A program made the translations under genes and the position numbers. A DNA stretch of 64,000 nucleotides from an uncultured Spirochaetota bacterium (GTDB lineage: Bacteria; Spirochaetota; Brevinematia; Brevinematales; JAOACQ01). The notes beneath the pieces are model-generated. The model worked only from the letters and a program-made list of their open reading frames with translations. It made no database searches and was not told the origin of the DNA. The stretch is taken from contig CAWIGG010000004.1 in NCBI GenBank assembly GCA_963835575.1, forward strand, positions 544,001 through 608,000, written 5' to 3'. Of the stretch, positions 39,901-61,226 are shown piece by piece. Position 1 is the stretch's first letter; every line of letters starts with the position of its first letter.

Positions 39901-40095
39901 TCTGTTCCTCCGTTGTTTCTGACAGGTTTATTATAATTAAAAAAAGGGGAGATGTAAACAGAATAACCCTGTTGTTTTCAAAATCCGGGAAATGACGCCG
40001 CAATGGCAAAAAAAAGTAATTCAATTGAGTTGACGAAAACCCCGCCGCCCTTTAAAATAAATATCTTTTTTTTTTAAGTACCCATGAGAGGATTT

Positions 40096-41784
40096 ATGGA
40101 CGAGAACAAGGTTATTACGATACAATCAGATAAAACCATCCTGCTTGACACGCATCATCCTCAATTTGAAGAAGTTAGAAAAAAGCTGGTCAATTTTTCA
40201 GAGCTTGTCAAGACGCCCGAGCACATTCATTTTTACCGTATTACGCCCATTTCTCTCTGGAATTCCGCCGCTAACGGCGTTCCGCTCGATGATATTCTGA
40301 ATACTCTGGACATCTATAAAAAATATGATATACCCAGGAATGTTTTTGAATATGTCAAACGGCATTACACGATTTACGGTAAAATTTTATTTGAAAGTGT
40401 TGATAATGAAAAGATGATGATCCGCATTGAAGAAGATAAAATTTTTGAAAGGGTCAAAAGCCTGATTGAGAAATACATCATTGAGGAAAAAGCGGATAGG
40501 GTCCTGATCGTCGAGAAGAAATGGCGCGGCAGCATCAAGACGGAACTGATCAAGCATCTGATGCCCGTAAAGGACGTGGCCGGTTTTGACAGCGGCAATA
40601 AGATGGAATTTGATCTCAGAAAGCAGAGCCTTGAAGAAAAGGATTTTGCCATGAGGTATTATCAATCGGAAGCGGTTTACAGTTTTTCAAAATGGAAGGA
40701 AGGCAGCGGCATCATAGTACTCCCATGCGGCGCGGGGAAAACGATAGTCGGTATCGGGATTATGCGCGATATCAGCGAATATACCCTGATTATCACGACC
40801 AGCGTCGAAGCCATCAGGCAGTGGAAAAGGGAGATCCTCGATAAAACGTCGCTTTCGGAGGATGATGTCGGCGAATTTACAGCCCAGGTCAAGGATATCA
40901 AACCGGTCACCATTACAACCTATAATATGCTGATCCATAAGAGCAATAAAAGCGAGGAGATGCGCAACATCAATATCTTTACAGATAAAAACTGGGGTCT
41001 CATCATTTATGACGAGGTCCATATCCTTCCGGCGCCGATTTTCCGTATGACAACCATCATACAGAGTAAGCGCAGGCTCGGCCTGACGGCCACTCTGGTG
41101 CGTGAGGATAACCTGGAAAGCGAAGTCTTTACCCTGATCGGGCCCAAGATTTATGAATATCCATGGAAGGCCCTTGAAAAAGAGGGCTGGATAGCGCAGG
41201 CCATCTGTTATGAGATTAAAGTCCCTCTCAGCGAAAAGGATTATAATGAATATATCAATTCCAATCAGCGGTATAAGTTCCGCATAGCTTCCGAGAATTT
41301 ACGTAAGGATATTATTGTTAAAAAGCTGATGGAAAAATATAAAGACAACCATATTCTGATCATCGGGCATTATATATCCCAGCTTGAACAGTTATCGAGG
41401 ATGCTTAAAATCCCTCTGATCACCGGCGAAACCCCGAACCAGGACCGGGAAAAGATGTACAGGGATTTCCGAAAGGGTAATATTCCCGCGCTGGCCATTT
41501 CGAGAGTGGGTAATTTTTCCATAGACCTTCCTGTCGCGGATGTGGCCATCCAGGTTTCGGGAATATTCGGTTCAAGGCAGGAGGAAGCCCAGAGGCTCGG
41601 CAGGATACTGCGGCCGCAGGTCGGGAAATCCTATTTTTATACCCTGGTATCAAAGGATACTCTCGAAGAAGAATTTGCGAAAAAAAGGCAGATGTTCCTT
41701 CTGGAACAGGGATATCAATATAACATTATAAACACAAGCGAAAGGGACCATCTGACGGAATTAAAGGAAATGGCTTTCGGATAA
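40096..41784 (+). CDS. bacterial XPB/Rad25-family DNA helicase
   Basis: VLPCGAGKT, DEVH, LGLTATLVRED, QRLGRILR. Confidence 0.9.
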   Translation: MDENKVITIQSDKTILLDTHHPQFEEVRKKLVNFSELVKTPEHIHFYRITPISLWNSAANGVPLDDILNTLDIYKKYDIPRNVFEYVKRHYTIYGKILFESVDNEKMMIRIEEDKIFERVKSLIEKYIIEEKADRVLIVEKKWRGSIKTELIKHLMPVKDVAGFDSGNKMEFDLRKQSLEEKDFAMRYYQSEAVYSFSKWKEGSGIIVLPCGAGKTIVGIGIMRDISEYTLIITTSVEAIRQWKREILDKTSLSEDDVGEFTAQVKDIKPVTITTYNMLIHKSNKSEEMRNINIFTDKNWGLIIYDEVHILPAPIFRMTTIIQSKRRLGLTATLVREDNLESEVFTLIGPKIYEYPWKALEKEGWIAQAICYEIKVPLSEKDYNEYINSNQRYKFRIASENLRKDIIVKKLMEKYKDNHILIIGHYISQLEQLSRMLKIPLITGETPNQDREKMYRDFRKGNIPALAISRVGNFSIDLPVADVAIQVSGIFGSRQEEAQRLGRILRPQVGKSYFYTLVSKDTLEEEFAKKRQMFLLEQGYQYNIINTSERDHLTELKEMAFG

Positions 41785-41797
41785 AGGGGGACATGCT

Positions 41798-43531
41798 ATG
41801 TTTCAGGGAGAAACCAGCGCGTTATCAAGCAAAGCGGTGAAGGATTGGTTAATAAAAGAAGAACCCAAACTCATTAAAAAAATATATGATTTTTATTTTA
41901 AAACTGAAGAAGAGCTTTCCTTTGACAGCGCGGAAAATTCAAAGAGGCTTGAGAAAGTATCGGATTATTTATCGCAGAACGCCGCTGTCATTTACTCGGG
42001 TTTGAATCAATACGAAAAACTGCTGCTCTATATCATGAAAAGCGGTTTCGGCTGGATTGTTTATGAAAATATTGAGTCGACTTTAAAAATTATATCAAAG
42101 ATCTTTCATTTTGACTATGATGATCTGTCAAAAGCGATGGAATCGCTCTTTAAAAAATTCCTTATTTTTAAATTTGAAAGGTTGAAAAATTACAGCTTTT
42201 TCTTTTCCCCGCCCGTTTTCCTGAGGAATATCGACAATACCATGAATAAAGAGGAAATTTTCGGGGAAGAAGATTCCCCGCAGTTTTCCAAAGACCTGTT
42301 AAGCCACCAGTACATACCGCTCATAGCGGGATTAATATCCTATGTCGTGACGTATTCCCCCCGGAGTTCTGAAACAAATGAAATTCATAAAATCGACCTG
42401 GCAAAAATGCTTGAGTTTTTTGAGGATTTTTCAGAAAAGGAATATCTGGAGCAGGTGATAAAAAAGCTGACACGCTTCGGTTTCTTCCAGAAGTTCAACA
42501 ACAGGATCATCATCAACAAGTCGCTTTTTGACGCCATTATCAATTTATCCATCAATGAACAGCTCTTTATCATTTTTCTTTATGAATTTATGGATAAATT
42601 TGATTTCAGGAAAAGCGCTTTTATGACGCTTAAAATACTCGCCGTTCAGACATTTACTAAAAAGACCGGGATGCCGCTCCGTGAGCTTTTCTTCCATTAT
42701 CTGAATAATGAGATATATATTTCATTGAAAAATGAGCCGAAGAACCTCAAATTCCTTCTCAAGCAGGAAGAACTGAAATTCATGTATTTTGTCAAAAGCC
42801 TGGAATTGGAAAATATCGCCGTGCTGAAAAGACAGTATCCCGATGTCATTTCGATTGCCACCGATTATATCATTATGAACGAGCCGCATACATCACTCCT
42901 GAATAATATTGATTTTTCACACAAATTCGTGGAAGAGAAATTCATTGTGGAAACCAATTATGAGACGATAGTGGAGCCATATCTCAGACCGGATATTCTC
43001 TTCAGGCTTGCTTTGATTTCCGAGCCGCTGACCATACAGACGATTTCCATGTTCCGGATAACAAAAGAATCCATATACCGCTCTTTTGCTTACGGGATTA
43101 AAAAAGAAGAAATACTCGAATTTCTGAACATGTATTCCAAGCATCCGGTGCCGGCGATCGTCAGCGAGGGCATCAGAAGTTTTGTCGGCAGCCTGACGCC
43201 TGAAAATATGAACACCTATAAAATCATCCAGGTCAGCGCGCATTTCTCTTCATTAATTAAAGATCATTTCAAAAATCAAATCATCGAAGTGGAGCCGCAT
43301 ACATTTCTCGTTTTTGAGGCGGAGCTGTTAAAAAGAATAGAGGCATACTGCAAGAGCCAGCGTATTACCATCCGCTTTATCAATGATTTTTTAAACGAGA
43401 AATACAGCGCGTCTCTCATACAGAACATGTTCTCGCATAATATTAAACATCTCCATACGATGAAGGACTTTTTCGATTATTACGGTAATGAGCCGATGGG
43501 CGTGAATTTAAAGATCGATAACGGCATTTGA
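41798..43531 (+). CDS. XPB-associated protein with a helicase-associated (Helicase_C_3-like) domain
   Basis: IVETNYE...FRITKESIYRS...ILEFL..SKHPVP, similar to the XPB N-terminus. Confidence 0.65.
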   Translation: MFQGETSALSSKAVKDWLIKEEPKLIKKIYDFYFKTEEELSFDSAENSKRLEKVSDYLSQNAAVIYSGLNQYEKLLLYIMKSGFGWIVYENIESTLKIISKIFHFDYDDLSKAMESLFKKFLIFKFERLKNYSFFFSPPVFLRNIDNTMNKEEIFGEEDSPQFSKDLLSHQYIPLIAGLISYVVTYSPRSSETNEIHKIDLAKMLEFFEDFSEKEYLEQVIKKLTRFGFFQKFNNRIIINKSLFDAIINLSINEQLFIIFLYEFMDKFDFRKSAFMTLKILAVQTFTKKTGMPLRELFFHYLNNEIYISLKNEPKNLKFLLKQEELKFMYFVKSLELENIAVLKRQYPDVISIATDYIIMNEPHTSLLNNIDFSHKFVEEKFIVETNYETIVEPYLRPDILFRLALISEPLTIQTISMFRITKESIYRSFAYGIKKEEILEFLNMYSKHPVPAIVSEGIRSFVGSLTPENMNTYKIIQVSAHFSSLIKDHFKNQIIEVEPHTFLVFEAELLKRIEAYCKSQRITIRFINDFLNEKYSASLIQNMFSHNIKHLHTMKDFFDYYGNEPMGVNLKIDNGI

Positions 43532-48341: not shown

Positions 48342-48553
48342 AAAACCTCCAATATTTATTAATATCTTCAATAGAATATATTGAATGCCGGCGGTATCGG
48401 CAAGTCTATTTCAACTATTATTCATTAAACCGGAAGTTTATTAATAAAACTCAAATTTATTCGGGCGGGAATTTCTTTCGGATGTTTCGGCGGAAACTTT
48501 CCCGTGTGATAACCTGGAGGCTTTGCACAAATTAATGCTGTAAAATCCCGGCC

Positions 48554-48582
48554 TTGACATTTCAATACCGCTTTATTAAAAT
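48554..48582 (+). promoter_or_regulatory. sigma70 promoter related to the island promoters
   Basis: TTGACA-N17-TAAAAT; flanks resemble 55115-55160. Confidence 0.65.
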
Positions 48583-48657
48583 GATGAATGGAAGTTCGGA
48601 TATTATGCGACGCGTCGATGAAACATTTAAAATTACAGTTTGCCTAAAGGATATAAC

Positions 48658-52590: not shown

Positions 52591-52656
52591 TTTATATTTA
52601 TAAATCAATGCCTTAAAGAATGATTAAAAACTCAAATAATGCTACTTGATTGTACT

Positions 52657-52816
52657 GATCCGATTCTGCACGCGGATGACGCGGATTATTCGGATTCGCG
52701 CGGATCGGCTGATTGCTTCCGTTATCATAAAGTCAGCGCATCAGATTTTTTTTAAAAATAACGGTCTTGACAGTAAAACATTAATTTTTAAAATGATTGT
52801 AATAAATTTCGTATAT
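52657..52816 (+). repeat. left arm plus promoter module, copy 1
   Basis: gatccgattctgcacgcggatgacgcggattattcggattcgcgcggat, then ~110 bp incl. TTGACA-N16-TAAAAT; direct repeat at 55011-55172. Confidence 0.85.
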
Positions 52817-52959: not shown

Positions 52960-54355
52960 GAGTTTTTGTCAAATGTTGTGTATGACATACCCTCTCATTT
53001 TTTTATGCTGCCTTTTTTACAAGCTCTCCGTTCTCAAAAACAGCGCCTTCCAATACAAGGCTAATCTTTTCATAACCTCTTAATTTTCTCCATCGCCTGG
53101 ATGCCTTATCCAGTAATTTATAGACCATTATTAGAATCGTTTCCCTGGTTCCGCAGCCTCTCATCTTTTTAGTTCTTAATCGAACTGTAGAGAAGGTAGA
53201 TTCTATTACGTTTGTCGTACGGATATGTACCCAATGTTCCGCCGGACAGTTATAAAATTCGATCATAAGCTCCCAATCCTTTTCTAAACATTCGACAGCT
53301 GCTGGATATTTAGGATTAAAAACCGCCTGGAATAATTCAAAAGCTTTGATAGCATTATCCTTATCAGGAGCATTGCATATCTCATGAAGCATCTCTTTTG
53401 CCTTTGACTGTAATACTTTGGGCAGCTTGTTTAGAATGTTCTTTATCTTATGAACCCAGCATCTCTGCCATCTGGATTCAGGATATACTTCTTTGGCTGC
53501 TTTCCAGAATCCAAGGCTTCCGTCTCCGATAAAAAGAATAGGACCTTTCAAACCTTTTTCTTTTAGGTTTCTTAATATCCCTAACCAAGTCTCGGAATTC
53601 TCTCTGTAACCTTCTTCAACAAGAATAATCTCCTTTTCACCATTCTCATTGGCTCCGATCATTACAAGAGTGCATAAACGGTCTTCGCTGCCCTGTACAT
53701 TGAAGTAAATGCCGTCAACCCATATATAGCAATACTTTTTATCGCTTAAATCGGATGTCCGCCACTCATCATATTCTTTACCCCATCCTTGTTTCATTCT
53801 GCTTATACTTGAGGCTGATAATCCTTTCGCTTCTTCACCAAGCAATCCTCTCAAGGCATTCTCCATATCCATCTCTGAGACTCCATAGAGATACAACAAT
53901 GGAATGGCTTCCTCAATTCTCAGGCTTTTTCTCATATACGGCGGTACTATTAGGCTTTGAAAATTGTCGCCTCCGAGTCGGTTCCTTGTTCTCGGAATAC
54001 ATACATCAATAGCCCCTCCACCAATGAGAATCTGACGGGCTTTATGATACCCATTTCTTACTATTGCCTTTCTCCCGTCTTCGATAGTTAAATGCTCTCT
54101 CTCCTGAAGAAACCCATTAATTTCATCTTCCAGAGCCTTCTTGATTATTTCCCTGGCCCCGATCCTTGCCAATTCTTCAAGACATAAAAATTCTACTGTT
54201 TCATCTTGATTAAAAGCCTGTAAGAGCTTAAAATCTTCGTTGTGCTTCGGCATATGGCGTATTCCTCCTTTTGTTTATTGTCGTAAATAAATTATAGAGG
54301 GTACGCCATCTTTTTTATAATATTTATTCCTATACACAACTTTCTATTATAACTC
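52960..54355 (-). mobile_element. IS256-family insertion sequence, copy 1 (1396 bp)
   Basis: Imperfect TIRs GAGTT...GTTGTGTAT; 8-bp TSD TACCTGAA at 52952-52959 and 54356-54363. Confidence 0.95.
53003..54253 (-). CDS. IS256-family transposase
   Basis: RNGY, WVDGIY, IGDG, QRCWVHK, RTTNVIES. Confidence 0.95.
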   Translation of the reverse strand: MPKHNEDFKLLQAFNQDETVEFLCLEELARIGAREIIKKALEDEINGFLQEREHLTIEDGRKAIVRNGYHKARQILIGGGAIDVCIPRTRNRLGGDNFQSLIVPPYMRKSLRIEEAIPLLYLYGVSEMDMENALRGLLGEEAKGLSASSISRMKQGWGKEYDEWRTSDLSDKKYCYIWVDGIYFNVQGSEDRLCTLVMIGANENGEKEIILVEEGYRENSETWLGILRNLKEKGLKGPILFIGDGSLGFWKAAKEVYPESRWQRCWVHKIKNILNKLPKVLQSKAKEMLHEICNAPDKDNAIKAFELFQAVFNPKYPAAVECLEKDWELMIEFYNCPAEHWVHIRTTNVIESTFSTVRLRTKKMRGCGTRETILIMVYKLLDKASRRWRKLRGYEKISLVLEGAVFENGELVKKAA

Positions 54356-54660
54356 TACCTGAAAGAGATTATATTATATTCATTAATGAAGTCACTCGTT
54401 TGTATATCTATTTTAATTATAATAGAACTGAATTATTGAATTTTGTTGTTAAATTAGAGATAATATATTTAAATAAATGGACTGAGATTGAACGTTATGA
54501 CTGCTATCATGACATTGTCCATAAGGACATTTTAAATAAAAAAGGGAAGAAAATTAAATCCATTCGTTTTCCTCTGGTTGATAGAAAAGCAGGTGTTAAT
54601 TTTGCCGTTAATGATTTTAGAGAAAATTTTGAATTGTATGTCTGGAGGTTCTTAAAATGA
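54356..54660 (+). pseudogene. small RYDxxH..H putative toxin (DUF7718/TumE-like), 5' end hit by IS256
   Basis: Frame open from the TSD (PERDYIIF...ERYDCYHDIVHKD); the AAAGGA RBS is left on the other side of the IS. Confidence 0.55.
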
Positions 54661-54830
54661 AAAAAAATAAAAGAACTGAAGTCGAACAGGTCATAGAATA
54701 TCTTGAAAAAGAGGGATTCAGAGAAATCAAGCCTGAAGAACGAAACCTGCCGGAATTTCGAGATTCCATAAAAGAAACCCGCAAATTAATTAAAGAAATG
54801 AATTCTAAAAAAAAGAAAGTTAAAATATAA
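54657..54830 (+). CDS. 57-aa putative antitoxin/partner
   Basis: Hand translation MKKNKRTEVEQVIEYLEKEGFREIKPEE...; GGAGG RBS; ATGA overlap. Confidence 0.55.
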   Translation: MKKNKRTEVEQVIEYLEKEGFREIKPEERNLPEFRDSIKETRKLIKEMNSKKKKVKI

Positions 54831-55010
54831 ATCTGCGTTTAAACAATTTTTCTAATTGGTTCCGGGCACGGCATCTTATACGACGTTTGACGCTGTGCTC
54901 CCCGGCCTTCGCAAAGCCGCGGCCTGCGGCGCTCGTGTTCGCCCTGCCGCGGGTAGGCAGGAAATTATTATATTCACAAGCCTTTTTAACTAAAACATAA
55001 GCATGTTCTA

Positions 55011-55172
55011 ATATCCGATTGTTCACGCGGATCAGCACGGATAGGACGGATTTGCGCAGAGCAGCCTGATTGTTTCCAGCATTATAAAGTCAACACATCA
55101 GATTTTTAAAAAAATACCGGTCTTGACAGTAAAGTATTGCTTTATTAAGATGAATGAAATAAATTTCATATA
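55011..55172 (+). repeat. left arm plus promoter module, copy 2
   Basis: atatccgattgttcacgcggatcagcacggataggacggatttgcgcaga, then TTGACA(55123)-N17-TAAGAT. Confidence 0.85.
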
Positions 55173-56820
55173 TAAAGAGTTGAATAAAGAGGAGATTAAT
55201 TATGAATAAGACAAATCAGGCTGTTATTAAAATAGATCTGTGTGGTTCTAAAAAATATTACGAAAAAAACAAATATTCCGAACCAAATATTACTCAAATA
55301 ACTTTAGATAAACTTTTATCCGTTGTTAAAGAAATATTTCCATATTCAAATTTAGATTTTCCAAAAGGTAGTTTATATGCAAGGCAAGGTGATTGTGTTT
55401 ATATAATTTTAGATAAAGCCACAATTGCATTACGATCATCAATAGAGTTTATGAAAAAATGGTTTAGTATTTTACCAAGTTTACCAGATTGTAGAGCAAT
55501 AATTGATTATGGTGAAATATCAATTGATGATAGTAGACCTAGAATTGAACTTATTTCAGAATGTTTTGAGAACATTAGTGTAATAGAAAAATCTTACGGC
55601 GCTGGAGAAATTGGTGTCACGGAGGCATTAAAAAATAATTCCGATAATACATTAGTCCAATTTATTAAAAAAAAGAAAATTGATATAACAGAAGGTAGAT
55701 TTGTTAATGTTTTTCAAGCCAATTATGAAGACCCTCGATTATTTCAAGATAGTAGTTTAATTCATTCATTATTCGTGGCTTCATCGGACACAAGTAATGC
55801 AAGAGAAATGGCTATTGAAGCCCTAATTCTCGAATGTTTAATTGAAAGAATCAACAAACCGATTTCATTAATAGATTTAAATTACTGGTTAAAATATAAA
55901 AATTGCCCTCAAATTGATCAATTATTAATAGATGGTATTATACAAAAATCAAAGTACATATCGAAAGATAAGGAAAATAACATTGTTTTTAAAAGTTCAG
56001 ATACAATTAAGGAGTTAAATGTTATTAAAGAAGATTTTGAAGCACAACGTGATGATACTATTAAAAAAATAGCTTTATATTTAAGCGATGGTTTGGGTTT
56101 GGACACCTCGATAGTGAATAAAGAATTAAACTTGACTGATCTTGTTGAGAAATATTTATGCGCTGTATTTTTAGAAATTCGTTTTATGGCAAATTACTTC
56201 AAATCCACACAACTATTGTTTGAAAAATTATCTTCTGATGAAGATTTTGATTATATAATAAAATCGCATTTATCAAATAGTAATTCCATAGGTATAGAGC
56301 AATTTGCATTATTAAAGAAATTATTTCTTGATGCATTGACAAATGTAGCAACAAAAAACAATAAATATATTGCATCAATATTCCATAATATACTTATGAT
56401 ATATTATTTAAACCGCAGTGAAAAATATATCCACTCTCAATTAGAAATAATGAAACAAAAGGAAATTTATATTGATACAAATGTTCTTTATTCAATAAAA
56501 TGTAAATATAGTCAATATCATGATATGCTGACATATATAATTGATAATTTAAACAGACTTGGAGCTCAGATATTTGTTTTTGAAAAAAGTGTGGCTGAAT
56601 ATAATGATTCATTAACTACAACTTTTAAAAAATATAAAAATGATACACTCAATTTTTTACATCAAGAGAAAAAACCTTGGATATGGTATGAATATGAAAA
56701 TAATATTAATTCATACCAAAATAGTTTTGAATATTGCATTTCTTTGCATCATATACCAATAAATACAAATAATTCAATTGATGATAGTTTCGAAGAAGCC
56801 AGAAAAGAATTATCTCAAAG

Positions 56821-58216
56821 GAGTTATAATAGAAAGTTGTGTATAGGAATAAATATTATAAAAAAGATGGCGTACCCTCTATAATTTATTTACGACAATA
56901 AACAAAAGGAGGAATACGCCATATGCCGAAGCACAACGAAGATTTTAAGCTCTTACAGGCTTTTAATCAAGATGAAACAGTAGAATTTTTATGTCTTGAA
57001 GAATTGGCAAGGATCGGGGCCAGGGAAATAATCAAGAAGGCTCTGGAAGATGAAATTAATGGGTTTCTTCAGGAGAGAGAGCATTTAACTATCGAAGACG
57101 GGAGAAAGGCAATAGTAAGAAATGGGTATCATAAAGCCCGTCAGATTCTCATTGGTGGAGGGGCTATTGATGTATGTATTCCGAGAACAAGGAACCGACT
57201 CGGAGGCGACAATTTTCAAAGCCTAATAGTACCGCCGTATATGAGAAAAAGCCTGAGAATTGAGGAAGCCATTCCATTGTTGTATCTCTATGGAGTCTCA
57301 GAGATGGATATGGAGAATGCCTTGAGAGGATTGCTTGGTGAAGAAGCGAAAGGATTATCAGCCTCAAGTATAAGCAGAATGAAACAAGGATGGGGTAAAG
57401 AATATGATGAGTGGCGGACATCCGATTTAAGCGATAAAAAGTATTGCTATATATGGGTTGACGGCATTTACTTCAATGTACAGGGCAGCGAAGACCGTTT
57501 ATGCACTCTTGTAATGATCGGAGCCAATGAGAATGGTGAAAAGGAGATTATTCTTGTTGAAGAAGGTTACAGAGAGAATTCCGAGACTTGGTTAGGGATA
57601 TTAAGAAACCTAAAAGAAAAAGGTTTGAAAGGTCCTATTCTTTTTATCGGAGACGGAAGCCTTGGATTCTGGAAAGCAGCCAAAGAAGTATATCCTGAAT
57701 CCAGATGGCAGAGATGCTGGGTTCATAAGATAAAGAACATTCTAAACAAGCTGCCCAAAGTATTACAGTCAAAGGCAAAAGAGATGCTTCATGAGATATG
57801 CAATGCTCCTGATAAGGATAATGCTATCAAAGCTTTTGAATTATTCCAGGCGGTTTTTAATCCTAAATATCCAGCAGCTGTCGAATGTTTAGAAAAGGAT
57901 TGGGAGCTTATGATCGAATTTTATAACTGTCCGGCGGAACATTGGGTACATATCCGTACGACAAACGTAATAGAATCTACCTTCTCTACAGTTCGATTAA
58001 GAACTAAAAAGATGAGAGGCTGCGGAACCAGGGAAACGATTCTAATAATGGTCTATAAATTACTGGATAAGGCATCCAGGCGATGGAGAAAATTAAGAGG
58101 TTATGAAAAGATTAGCCTTGTATTGGAAGGCGCTGTTTTTGAGAACGGAGAGCTTGTAAAAAAGGCAGCATAAAAAAATGAGAGGGTATGTCATACACAA
58201 CATTTGACAAAAACTC
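56821..58216 (+). mobile_element. IS256-family insertion sequence, copy 2 (1396 bp)
   Basis: Same ends and same transposase as copy 1; 9-bp TSD ATCTCAAAG at 56812-56820 and 58217-58225. Confidence 0.95.
56923..58173 (+). CDS. IS256-family transposase
   Basis: Protein identical to 53003-54253. Confidence 0.95.
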   Translation: MPKHNEDFKLLQAFNQDETVEFLCLEELARIGAREIIKKALEDEINGFLQEREHLTIEDGRKAIVRNGYHKARQILIGGGAIDVCIPRTRNRLGGDNFQSLIVPPYMRKSLRIEEAIPLLYLYGVSEMDMENALRGLLGEEAKGLSASSISRMKQGWGKEYDEWRTSDLSDKKYCYIWVDGIYFNVQGSEDRLCTLVMIGANENGEKEIILVEEGYRENSETWLGILRNLKEKGLKGPILFIGDGSLGFWKAAKEVYPESRWQRCWVHKIKNILNKLPKVLQSKAKEMLHEICNAPDKDNAIKAFELFQAVFNPKYPAAVECLEKDWELMIEFYNCPAEHWVHIRTTNVIESTFSTVRLRTKKMRGCGTRETILIMVYKLLDKASRRWRKLRGYEKISLVLEGAVFENGELVKKAA

Positions 58217-59015
58217 ATCTCAAAGTAAAATACATTTAGTAAAATTAGAACCTTATTTAGATGAAAATTCCTTAAAGAATGTATTCAACTTAGTTTATAA
58301 TGCTAAGAAAGATTATAAATCTGAATTTGACCTCTATGGTGTTCCATATGATTCGGAATTTTATAAAATGAAGGTTTTACATGACTCAAATTGTTTATAT
58401 AAATTGAAATCAAAAGCGTCAAACCCCTTTGAAGCCAAACAATTATTTGTCACATGTGATTATCATTTAACTAAGGTCCGAAAAATTGAAAGAAATGAAT
58501 ATGAATTTTTAGTAGCAATAACTGAATTCTACGAATTTATATTACCTTATTTATTTCTATCAGATTCTGTAACTGCAAATCCAATCGAGATGCCTAATTT
58601 TTTATTAGCATCTGCACTTTCTATTGATCTATCAAATATTTTAGATTTAGACTCAATGATTGGTAGATATTTAATTCACGATAAAAATATTAACCAAAGA
58701 CATGAAATAATATCGAAATTAAAAGAAACAGAAAGATTTAATTCAATAAAGAAAAAACATGAAACTTTATTTAAACAAAAAAATGATGTAATTACAAAAG
58801 AAGAAATTAGTGATTTCATTTTTGAAGTTAATAATTTATCAAAAGATTATAAACAAGAAGTAAAAAATCAACTTGTAAAAAACATTACACAAAAAACAAT
58901 TTTTGATAAAGATAGTCAGATTTCTCAGCTAAAAGAAGTAAATGAAGCTTTACTTCTTGAACTTGAAAAATATAAGAAAAAAGAAAAAGGTACTAATTAT
59001 TACTTTAAGATGATG

Positions 59016-60690
59016 TTGCCTGTCGGTTTTTATAACATGCTTCATGGACATACGGCAGGGTTCCCGTTAAAATAAAACGGGAGAAAAAGATGGCAAGATT
59101 TGAAAAGAACAGCCTGGAGCAGGGTGAGTTCCTCGCGATCAATATAGGCGAGCAGTTTGATGAGAATTCCAGAGAATTTATACTAAAAGAATTCATCAAA
59201 AACCGTATTAAACTGGAGGATTTCGCGGCTTACTATAAGAACGACCATAGAGGCAGAGAGATTAAAAATCCTCGGGATGTGATCTGTGCGGTACTCTACG
59301 GTTACATTACGGGAAATCGTATCAGCCGAAAGATAGAAGATTTGCTGAAAAAACACATTGGGTTTATGTATGTTTCAAACCGGCTGAAAATTGACCATTC
59401 GGTAATTTGCGAGTTCAAGGTACTTTTTCAGGAAAAGATCGAGGAGTTGTTCAGCCAGCTTTTATATATACTCAACGAAATGGGGTCTATAGATTGGGAC
59501 ATGGTAGTGGGTGACGGCACAAAGATCAAGGCCTACGCGAGTAAGAATAAGAATGTGGGAAAGAAACATACCCGGAAGCTGATGGACACTTACCAGAAGA
59601 TGGCGGAAAAGATTGTGAAACAAGACCTGGAACTGGAAGAATCTTACCGGGAAGGCAAGCTGGAGCAGCCTTATTACGAAGCGGAGAAGAAGCGGGTATC
59701 AAGGCGGAAAAAGATTTACGATAGTGTTTTGAACCAAATCGATGAATACAAAAAACAGGTAGAGAGAGGGGAAAAGACAGACGAAGAATTCACCAACCTG
59801 ACTGATCCCGAAAGCAAGCTGATGTCTGGAAATCCGCATAGTGTGTTTATACAGGGATATAATTCGGCGATGATGGTCAGTAATAATGATGTGATTATAG
59901 ATTTTGAAGCAATCACAACACCGGAAAAACAGCATACGGAAGAAATGGTAAAGAGGGTGGAACAGAAAAAAGCGGAATTAAAAGTTGATAAGGCTAGCAA
60001 ATACCTTTTTGATTCGGGTTTTCAGGACATGGAAGAGACAATCCGGATGGTGGAGGAAGGAAAAGACCTTTATGTGGATACGAAAGAGCGGGATTTCAGT
60101 GATAAATCACAGAAGCGAAGAGACTTTAAACTGGAAAAGATTGATGACGAATATATCCTGGGATGCCGGGGCGGCCGTAAGGAAAATGGGTATTTAGATC
60201 GAAATAACCAAAGATATACATTTTTGTATTCACGGAAGGGCTGTGAAAGATGTCCATTTTTCAGTGAGTGTTATAAAAACATCAAACCGAAAACACAGCA
60301 AAAGACAGTAATTTTCAGTGAGTTTGAATTGAATAATCGGTCTAAGATTGATGCTTATTTAACAAAACTTTACAGCGAAGAAGGGCAAAAGATATACAAC
60401 CGCAGGATAGGTAAAGAACACGTATTTTCAAACATCAAAACACAGAAGGGTTATGTTCAGACAGTTTACAGAGGTCAACGGAAAGTGAATTTGGAGCTAT
60501 GCTGGGTATCCCTTGCGCATAATTTTATGAAATATGCCCAATATTTGAGAAAATAGAGAGGATTTTGTATAGTCTGAGTATCGATTATTCGAAATTTATT
60601 ATTAAAATCAGCTAAGCTGACAAAATTTTTATTTGCCCGCTTATTGTAAGGGGCTGGTTTGACTCCGAAAATGAAATAACCGACAGGCAA
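59016..60690 (+). mobile_element. IS1182-family insertion sequence (1675 bp)
   Basis: 13-bp TIR TTGCCTGTCGGTT/AACCGACAGGCAA; 4-bp TSD GATG. Confidence 0.85.
59090..60556 (+). CDS. IS1182-family transposase
   Basis: LYGY..G.RISRKIE, GDGTKIKAYAS, TDPESKLM, QGYN, DSGF, EHVFSNIK, AHN. Confidence 0.85.
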   Translation: MARFEKNSLEQGEFLAINIGEQFDENSREFILKEFIKNRIKLEDFAAYYKNDHRGREIKNPRDVICAVLYGYITGNRISRKIEDLLKKHIGFMYVSNRLKIDHSVICEFKVLFQEKIEELFSQLLYILNEMGSIDWDMVVGDGTKIKAYASKNKNVGKKHTRKLMDTYQKMAEKIVKQDLELEESYREGKLEQPYYEAEKKRVSRRKKIYDSVLNQIDEYKKQVERGEKTDEEFTNLTDPESKLMSGNPHSVFIQGYNSAMMVSNNDVIIDFEAITTPEKQHTEEMVKRVEQKKAELKVDKASKYLFDSGFQDMEETIRMVEEGKDLYVDTKERDFSDKSQKRRDFKLEKIDDEYILGCRGGRKENGYLDRNNQRYTFLYSRKGCERCPFFSECYKNIKPKTQQKTVIFSEFELNNRSKIDAYLTKLYSEEGQKIYNRRIGKEHVFSNIKTQKGYVQTVYRGQRKVNLELCWVSLAHNFMKYAQYLRK

Positions 60691-60867
60691 GATGGAAAAA
60701 AGAAATAAAAGAAATAAAAAATAATACACCATCTGTAGTTTTCCTTTAAAGCAAGTTTCGGCCCCTCACAGTAGATTCTTTTGTAGAACCTAATTTTTAA
60801 TGACGGCAATACGGCTTTGACACTTGCTTATAAAGCCGGAGCTAAATAAATTAGAAATGTCTTGCGA

Positions 60868-61085: not shown

Positions 61086-61136
61086 AAATCCGTGCAAATC
61101 CGCCTCATCCGTGTTATCCGTGTGCTGAATCGGATC
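61086..61136 (-). repeat. right arm of island 4
   Basis: Reverse complement gatccgattcagcacacggataacacggatgaggcggatttgcacggattt aligns to 52657-52705. Confidence 0.85.
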
Positions 61137-61226
61137 GATACCATAGCTTCAATCAAAAAAACAGTTTAAATCACATTTTACAAACCCCGATTAATTATAT
61201 ATAATAGACGGTATTGGAGATTTAAA

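Follow-up and report, generated by a model that had tools for sequence, protein, structure and literature searches.

The DNA analysed here, called the window, is a stretch of 64,000 nucleotides from an uncultured Spirochaetota bacterium (contig CAWIGG010000004.1, positions 544,001 to 608,000 of the forward strand). Between positions 55202 and 60724 it holds a gene interrupted by two insertion sequences (IS). Once the IS256 and IS1182-like elements are removed, 812 codons form a single open frame from 55202 to the stop ending at 60724. The encoded protein has a nucleotidyl-cyclase domain of class III followed by a predicted PIN domain. This architecture is a single chain, borne by intact homologues, and the family, here termed cyclase-PIN, is apparently undescribed. 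The gene pieces and the elements between them are the following (aa, amino acids).

55202..56820, + strand: gene piece 1, codons 1-540, with the cyclase, the winged helix, the helical region and the first half of the PIN domain; GC content 26%
56821..58216, + strand: IS256-family element of 1396 bp with a 9-bp target duplication; transposase at 56923-58173; the PIN domain is split by it
58226..59015, + strand: gene piece 2, codons 540-803, with the second half of the PIN domain (to about 58523), a helical region and a coiled coil; GC content 24%
59016..60690, + strand: IS1182-like element of 1675 bp with terminal inverted repeats and a 4-bp target duplication; transposase at 59090-60556
60695..60724, + strand: gene piece 3, the final 9 codons (basic tail) and the stop

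A first-pass annotation of the sequence had proposed the 812-aa frame. The reconstruction reproduces it exactly, with all seven quoted motifs present. Both target duplications are exact: ATCTCAAAG at 56812-56820 and 58217-58225 for IS256, and GATG at 59012-59015 and 60691-60694 for the IS1182-like element. The IS256 transposase matches NF033543 over the cut-off (E 3.7e-92), and the element has the terminal repeats and the 8-9 bp target duplication that define the IS256 family. For the IS1182-like transposase, NF033551 is the best family and matches at full length (E 8.2e-63, 213 bits, under the 270 cut-off). The host genome carries 32 full-length copies of IS256 and 24 of the IS1182-like element, at 99.7-100% identity. 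Both elements are part of a recent IS burst. At several IS copies in the genome the flanks do not match, which suggests recombination between copies.

The gene had been described as knocked out twice. This holds for IS256, which is inserted at codon 540, between the first two and the last two acidic residues of the PIN site. It does not hold for the IS1182-like element, inserted after codon 803 of 812, which merely replaces the 9-residue basic tail with 19 residues. IS256 is the sole clear inactivation, and piece 1 at present ends at 56884 as a truncated open reading frame (ORF) of 560 aa. The reconstructed gene has no further stop or frameshift, so the inactivation is recent. The copy in the window is most likely dead, since IS256 divides the PIN site and PycTM, the membrane effector of Pycsar discussed below, was not found in the genome. 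A split protein functioning from two pieces, with an in-frame ATG in the IS256 end (58188), appears unlikely.

A homologue search with piece 1 returned 58 matches, most of them unnamed and 770-842 aa long. For piece 2, the alignment falls on the C-terminal part of these proteins, with 44% identity to homologue P0003. Homologue P0002 (83% identical) is continuous over the position of the IS256 junction. The same intact proteins are matched by both large pieces in collinear order. A chance frame is excluded by this homology, that is, by the 58 matches and by the collinearity of the pieces with intact proteins. The possibility that the fragments are separate genes was rejected on the intact homologues of about 800 aa and the in-order alignment of both pieces. 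The GC content of the gene (26% and 24%) compares with 42% for the genome, where 3 of 2737 genome windows are equally low. In a survey of 400 other genomes of the phylum, four of the same genus among them, the gene had no hit (0/400).

As modelled, the chain runs from a class III cyclase through a winged helix, a helical region and PIN to a coiled coil. The domains are placed as follows.

55217..55732, + strand: nucleotidyl-cyclase domain of class III, spanning roughly aa 6-177 (fold taken from the model of homologue P0003)
55787..56017, + strand: winged-helix domain, spanning roughly aa 196-272 (residues 30-106 of homologue P0002; generic matches with Z up to 8.3)
56018..56458, + strand: all-helical region with a conserved FHNVLxxYYLNR motif, about aa 273-419 (sequence and model)
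56459..56820, + strand: first half of the PIN domain, with D425 of DTN and E466 (alignment and fold matches)
within 58226..58523, + strand: second half of the PIN domain, with H592, D593, T616 and D618 (alignment)

The model of P0003 (pLDDT 85, pTM 0.82) has a class III cyclase at residues 1-173. Its closest structure is Ma1120 (VIA), with Z 20.3 and a root-mean-square deviation (rmsd) of 2.2 Å across 159 residues. Ordinary cyclases (Z 19-20) rank above the PycC structures (Z 15.8, 15.4, 15.2 and 12.6), and these above GGDEF (Z 12.4 or less). Pfam gives no Guanylate_cyc match for this domain.

We counted residues in 75 database proteins with the column of the first Asp aligned; the fused forms described below were left out and P0075 was removed by hand. 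Positions are in P0003 numbering, and the window numbering is 3 higher in the cyclase (D9 = D12, D61 = D64). D9, S13, G60, D61 and E126 are invariant (75/75), and position 95 is Arg or Lys in all 75. Near-invariant residues are K7, K14 (71/75), R28 (72/75) and K127 (73/75). The window copy keeps K10, D12, S16, K17, G63, D64, R98, E123, E129 and K130. D12 and D64 are the two metal-binding aspartates, which the annotation had recognized together with the class III pattern. Positions -4 and -2 before the second Asp differ by clade (SxQGD, KxEGD, KxDGD, RxEGD). They correspond to the base-selecting positions of EaPycC, given as R142, Q144 and D146 in the accessible text of PMC11224242.

Residues 1-180, modelled as two copies together with ATP and Mg, reached a score of 0.89, and the best of 3 controls reached 0.00; pLDDT was at least 88. 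At least 97% of the contacts coincide between the homodimer runs. Of 30 solved pairs 20 attain the mark, and of 23 single chains 1 does. Resemblance to class III dimers of known structure may account for the score. The conserved K14 and E120 contact one another across the modelled interface.

The cyclase-less part was modelled in P0002 (pLDDT 89) as a winged helix and an enlarged PIN. Many VapC/PIN chains match model residues 254-473 at Z 6.7-8.0, and Foldseek against 1y82 gives a probability of 0.98 with E 0.19. At E 0.001 Foldseek found nothing for this part, and among the structure matches listed there is no solved structure spanning the whole core. The four acidic residues of the site (D425, E466, D593 and D618 in the window frame) are split by IS256. 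In P0003 numbering, D421, E462, H576, D577, T600 and D602 are invariant in the 59-65 proteins reaching them. Pfam gives sub-threshold PIN matches, and PIN_3 passes its cut-off only in the distant relatives P0166 and P0191. The PIN call is made because of the invariant D-E-HD-TxD residues, the weak Pfam matches and the middling Z to VapC-type chains (7-8), and it agrees with the PIN-like C-terminal half read by the annotation. In the P0003 model the chain ends in an 89-residue helix.

Searching with a profile of 42 full-length members gave 287 representatives at E 0.001. Among the best 150 of these 287 we observed three kinds of relative: stand-alone proteins of about 800 aa, proteins with an extra N-terminal enzyme, and cyclase-less proteins of 620-750 aa. 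In the second kind the added enzyme is a nucleoside phosphorylase (PNP), an alpha/beta-hydrolase, a metallophosphoesterase or a GT4-conflict glycosyltransferase, several of the proteins being fragments. In these fused forms almost the entire conserved cyclase set is gone and the PIN site is retained. Since the cyclase site decays there while PIN stays, the cyclase is selected only when it is the N-terminal enzyme. The cyclase-less proteins are homologous across the whole core (probability 100%, 502 columns), and some of their cores end in an Mrr nuclease or in predicted membrane helices.

A quick tree of 38 of the loci and 11 proteins, whose long branches leave the root unsure, places the cyclase-less forms outside the family. 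In the same tree, fusion with cyclase decay arises in two separate places. The core behind the cyclase is an older module, existing also without a cyclase. The cyclase-less proteins (P0142, P0153, P0159-P0191; also L085, 6001-7974) share the order winged helix-helical-PIN. They form an apparently large family, unnamed in libraries.

The hosts are scattered over Thermodesulfobacteriota, Acidobacteriota, Spirochaetota, Planctomycetota, Zixibacteria and Gammaproteobacteria. Searches of viral contigs, plasmids and phage records gave no relative. The family is rare and probably moves horizontally. In 13 of 50 homologue clusters there is a copy with a stop or frameshift, some of them probably sequencing errors (L007, L012, L014/L015, L025, L026, L035, L044, L050, L052, L053, L054, L062 and L065).

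The family has no name in any of the four profile libraries searched, and NCBIfam gave no match. PADLOC gave no match for the window pieces at E 1, nor for 5 intact homologues at E 0.01. The ESM Atlas gave leads below 0.9. Literature searches for a cyclase-PIN system, with thin coverage of subscription papers, returned nothing relevant. The single-chain architecture that the annotation could not name is borne by intact homologues and absent by name from the libraries searched. The structure searches and the search for intact relatives that the annotation suggested yielded the cyclase and PIN folds and the proteins of about 800 aa.

For the neighbourhoods we collected 200 ORFs of at least 100 aa within 3.5 kb of the gene; 148 of these and one farther, from 37 loci, were scanned. 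PycTM is present at 7 loci (L008, L010, L012, L021, L023, L024 and L045). After clustering at 90% identity this corresponds to 7/50 loci, or 6/27 with at least 1 kb on both sides. All seven lie within 2.3 kb of the gene. The near flank, 203 kb in all, has 7 and the far flank, 271 kb, has none (P 0.003). The background of PycTM is 20 of 301 genomes of the host phylum. In the 19 genomes carrying the gene, all 3 PycTM genes adjoin it. At L012 (8-nt overlap) and L024 (30-nt gap), PycTM is paired with the gene with no other cyclase in 22 kb, and the L024 copy is intact. The position of PycTM relative to the gene varies (upstream, downstream or divergent), and PycTM-linked members occur in both main clades.

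Defence neighbours are recognizable at 14 of the 37 scanned loci, by our own count with no matched control. In addition to PycC and PycTM, they include type I restriction-modification, Mrr, Druantia E-like, PDC-S11, Schlafen and PNP-EAD7 genes. An all-against-all comparison of neighbouring ORFs of at least 100 aa found no conserved antitoxin neighbour, and PycC/PycTM are the only recurrent specific neighbours. PycTIR-type TIR domains occur in 3 of 20 genomes, none adjacent and the nearest about 55 kb away. The one cyclase-less protein inspected, at its own locus only, shows no clear defence neighbour by eye.

Compared with Pycsar and Pucsar, the family shares the class III fold, the two metal aspartates, the predicted head-to-tail dimer, the variable base-selecting positions and the repeated pairing with PycTM (PF18967). 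Nevertheless, the cyclase-PIN protein is not a PycC. It does not match the PADLOC PycC profile, and the profile-profile probability against the neighbouring PycC-like proteins is 38%. The N-terminal helix, a PycC hallmark according to the accessible text of PMC11224242, is absent, and strand 1 starts at residue 2 in the model. Ordinary adenylyl cyclases (Z 19.6) resemble its fold more closely than PycC does (Z 12.6-15.8). Where PycC has A-N-x-A-S-K-L, cyclase-PIN has E-N-I-S-V-I-E-K. It is also fused to a PIN core of 630 aa, and most copies are without PycTM.

Class III adenylyl and guanylyl cyclases (Ma1120, Rv1264 and Cya2) are the best structural matches (Z 19-20, rmsd about 2.2-2.4 Å), and the aspartates and the phosphate-binding Arg position are kept. 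However, cyclase-PIN has Lys for Phe two residues before the first Asp, Glu for Asn and no conserved Arg, and it lacks a sensor or membrane domain. With the VapC/PIN ribonucleases the family shares the PIN fold, the four acidic residues and the Thr. Its PIN domain differs in measuring about 220 residues with large insertions and in lying within a multidomain chain, and no VapB-like gene was found.

The conflict systems of Kaur et al. 2020 (PMC7159879) carry swappable enzymes at their ends. In the accessible parts of that paper and of the Pucsar preprint ('immune clade 1'), cyclase, nucleoside phosphorylase, alpha/beta-hydrolase and glycosyltransferase are interchangeable and inactive cyclases occur. 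On the other hand, cyclase-PIN has no vWA/MoxR, STAND or caspase core, and those parts give no description of its constant part. The Pucsar preprint (10.64898/2026.08.12.744502) surveys immune cyclases, and the word PIN is absent from its main text; its Figure 1 and supplements could hold the architecture.

The annotation had considered the gene a candidate anti-phage protein, and PycTM/PycC and the other defence neighbours add independent support to this. We regard a defence role of the family as probable. We give about even weight to an abortive-infection system of a single gene, in which the firing of PycTM by the cyclase is optional. In such a system, the winged helix-helical-PIN core would sense infection, and the PIN domain would cut RNA and halt the infected cell (abortive infection). 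The cyclase would occupy a swappable N-terminal enzyme slot. It would work as a head-to-tail dimer, binding a metal-bound nucleoside triphosphate (metal-NTP) through D12/D64. Once the core is triggered, the cyclase would make a cyclic nucleotide, with lysines K17 and K130 replacing the missing Arg. Where PycTM is adjacent, this signal would open a second, membrane-damaging output, as in Pycsar; otherwise the PIN arm would act alone. The binding of metal-NTP by the cyclase is very likely. Synthesis of a cyclic nucleotide is slightly favoured, and direct activation of an adjacent PycTM by the signal is an evenly balanced proposal.

Several observations weigh against the abortive-infection reading. 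The accessible text of PMC4886424 describes the roles of the transition-state Asn and Arg in class III cyclases, and there the loss of Asn has precedent while Arg is normally kept. In cyclase-PIN the Asn is replaced with Glu or Asp in 71/75 (Glu123 in the window), and the Arg position is variable (Val in 38/75, Lys in 12/75, Val127 in the window). Because Arg is normally kept in known cyclases, catalysis is not assured in the family, although K14 or K127 (window K17 or K130) might stand in for it. Likewise, the window copy has T31 in the column of P0003 Arg28, where 72/75 members have Arg. No cyclic-nucleotide-binding domain was found in the chain. The Z values of the PIN and winged-helix domains (up to 8.0 and 8.3) are near the chance range of the tool.

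The link with PycTM also has its weak points. PycC-like cyclases with complete sites are present at 5 of the 7 PycTM loci, so independent systems may be co-located. A six-frame scan of all loci found no PycTM beyond the seven, with a profile built from those same seven genes. PycTM was not found in 16 of the 19 gene-carrying genomes (metagenome-assembled and incomplete), and most copies are without a known receptor. It was not found in the window's own genome either, which is 94% complete. The L012 copy has an in-frame stop near codon 326. Finally, the association of PycTM linkage with active-site status is not significant (7/32 vs 0/7, Fisher p 0.31).

The cyclase site is kept in most copies with no receptor known, which favours two other explanations. 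In one of them, which we hold as a tentative possibility, the domain is a pseudo-cyclase. It would bind metal-NTP without cyclising it and, as a dimer, switch the PIN RNase free once phage infection alters nucleotide pools; PycTM would be an independent defence gene travelling along. The metal and triphosphate ligands are indeed kept with both transition-state residues lost, and stand-alone members in the 16 genomes without PycTM keep their aspartates. According to the accessible text of PMC13069673, Pycsar can occupy operons with independent systems. This could explain five of the seven loci, but not easily the PycTM-only arrangements of L012 and L024. The base-selecting positions also vary by clade, as in signal-making cyclases, and Lys occupies the PycC-like position in 12/75, both at odds with a pseudo-cyclase.

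The other explanation is a guard, which we find improbable. Here a cyclic nucleotide made constantly by the cyclase would keep the PIN core inactive, and the trigger would be phage enzymes or sponges destroying Pycsar signals. The Panoptes system follows guard logic of this kind. A guard accounts for the close linkage with complete Pycsar operons at 5 loci, for catalytic residues kept without an outside receptor, and for the many broken homologues (13/50 clusters), as expected of a costly gene. However, dead-cyclase members keep the PIN site and cyclase-less cores exist, so PIN needs no repressing signal; no ligand pocket was identified.

It is very improbable that the cyclase is a partner subunit, contributing the half with the aspartates to a heterodimer formed with an adjacent PycC and coupling Pycsar to the PIN core. 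The C1/C2 halves of animal adenylyl cyclases are a precedent, and the aspartates are present with Asn and Arg lost and PycC adjacent in 5 loci. Nevertheless, the neighbouring PycC-like proteins have complete sites, the homodimer model passes and most loci are without PycC. A role outside defence, as a selfish toxin-antitoxin-like or stress-signalling gene landing in variable regions, is just as improbable. PIN domains are common in toxin-antitoxin pairs, 23 of the 37 scanned loci have no clear defence neighbour, and a DUF7718 pair lies upstream in the window. Against it are the lack of a conserved antitoxin neighbour, PycC/PycTM as the only recurrent specific neighbours, and the domain swapping of effector type.

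A more far-reaching reading is doubtful. It supposes a self-contained immune protein whose rewired cyclase site, with a conserved Lys/Glu set for Asn/Arg, makes a signal other than those known from Pycsar and Pucsar. This signal would both control the protein's own PIN nuclease and fire a PycTM in trans, the protein perhaps guarding against anti-Pycsar proteins of phages. The cyclase-less core would then be a further, wider undescribed defence family.

For the question of what triggers Pycsar-type cyclases, this family offers a natural handle on the sensor that turns a cyclase on, since it wires a cyclase to a large core that also stands alone. The conserved non-canonical site could reveal a new route of nucleotide cyclisation, a new signal or a cyclase turned sensor. 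The intact one-gene and two-gene (L024) versions are small enough for direct testing.

Some neighbourhoods of the homologues have further particularities. At L021 (2165-7453), four same-strand genes encode PycTM, an AGS-C-type PycC, a second PycC-like cyclase and cyclase-PIN, that is, three cyclases for one effector. At L010 (14661-16454), downstream of PycC and PycTM, lies a protein of 598 aa whose N-terminal domain is a class III cyclase and whose C-terminal part has no annotation. The PycC-like cyclases at L008 8108-8857, L010 12496-13302, L021 4067-4942 and L045 11717-12460 match PADLOC PycC only weakly (best E 1e-16 to 1e-30); they recur beside the family and are possibly one subclade. 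A PNP-EAD7 fusion gene is near the homologue of L005 (883-2142). Near that of L070 (4063-5536) there are a DprA-like and phosphoribosyltransferase-like pair, assigned by eye, and type I restriction-like genes.

In the window, the surroundings of the gene contain the following features.

52649..52705, no strand assigned: dispersed repeat of the repetitive extragenic palindromic (REP)-like type, with more copies at about 55020-55060 and 61088-61144
52960..54355, - strand: second, identical IS256 copy with an 8-bp target duplication, inserted within the 5' end of the DUF7718 gene or immediately ahead of it
54400..54830, + strand: DUF7718 ORF (54400-54660) and an overlapping 57-aa ORF (54657-54830), separate cargo with no sign of partnership
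55123..55151, + strand: sigma-70-like promoter site TTGACA-17-TAAGAT, a 10/12 consensus match only, inside a unit of about 95 nt
55189..55194, + strand: ribosome-binding site GAGGAG, 7 nt ahead of the ATG, read from sequence

The near-consensus promoter of the annotation is real as a sequence (10/12). It is, however, one of 44 such sites, against 29 in shuffles. A promoter unit of about 60-95 nt recurs about 10 times in the genome, ahead of varied genes, several of them low in GC, and often beside the REP-like repeat. Its copies include 55085-55180, 52728-52816 and 48542-48588 in the window and C4:914886, C4:914110, C4:893333, C2:1055500 and C6:171670 in the genome. This unit may mark hot spots of gene acquisition. 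The gene had also been placed in a repeat-bracketed island. We rejected it, as the repeat and the promoter unit are both dispersed genome-wide, the bracketing repeat with 37 BLAST hits in the host genome.

Four relatives have in common with the window only the genes at 61.7-63.3 kb. DUF7718 is also present at the homologue locus L024. On the + strand, 54830-55202 has no ORF of at least 60 aa, so there is no antitoxin-like gene directly upstream. The DUF7718 frame continues through the insertion site of the second IS256, and this small region thus has three IS insertions. At the end of the IS256 in the gene (58204-58231), the element contributes TTGACA to an 11/12 hybrid promoter reading into gene piece 2. 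Farther away, at 40084-43531, an XPB-type helicase gene precedes a gene of 577 aa, for which the XPB N-terminal match is weak.

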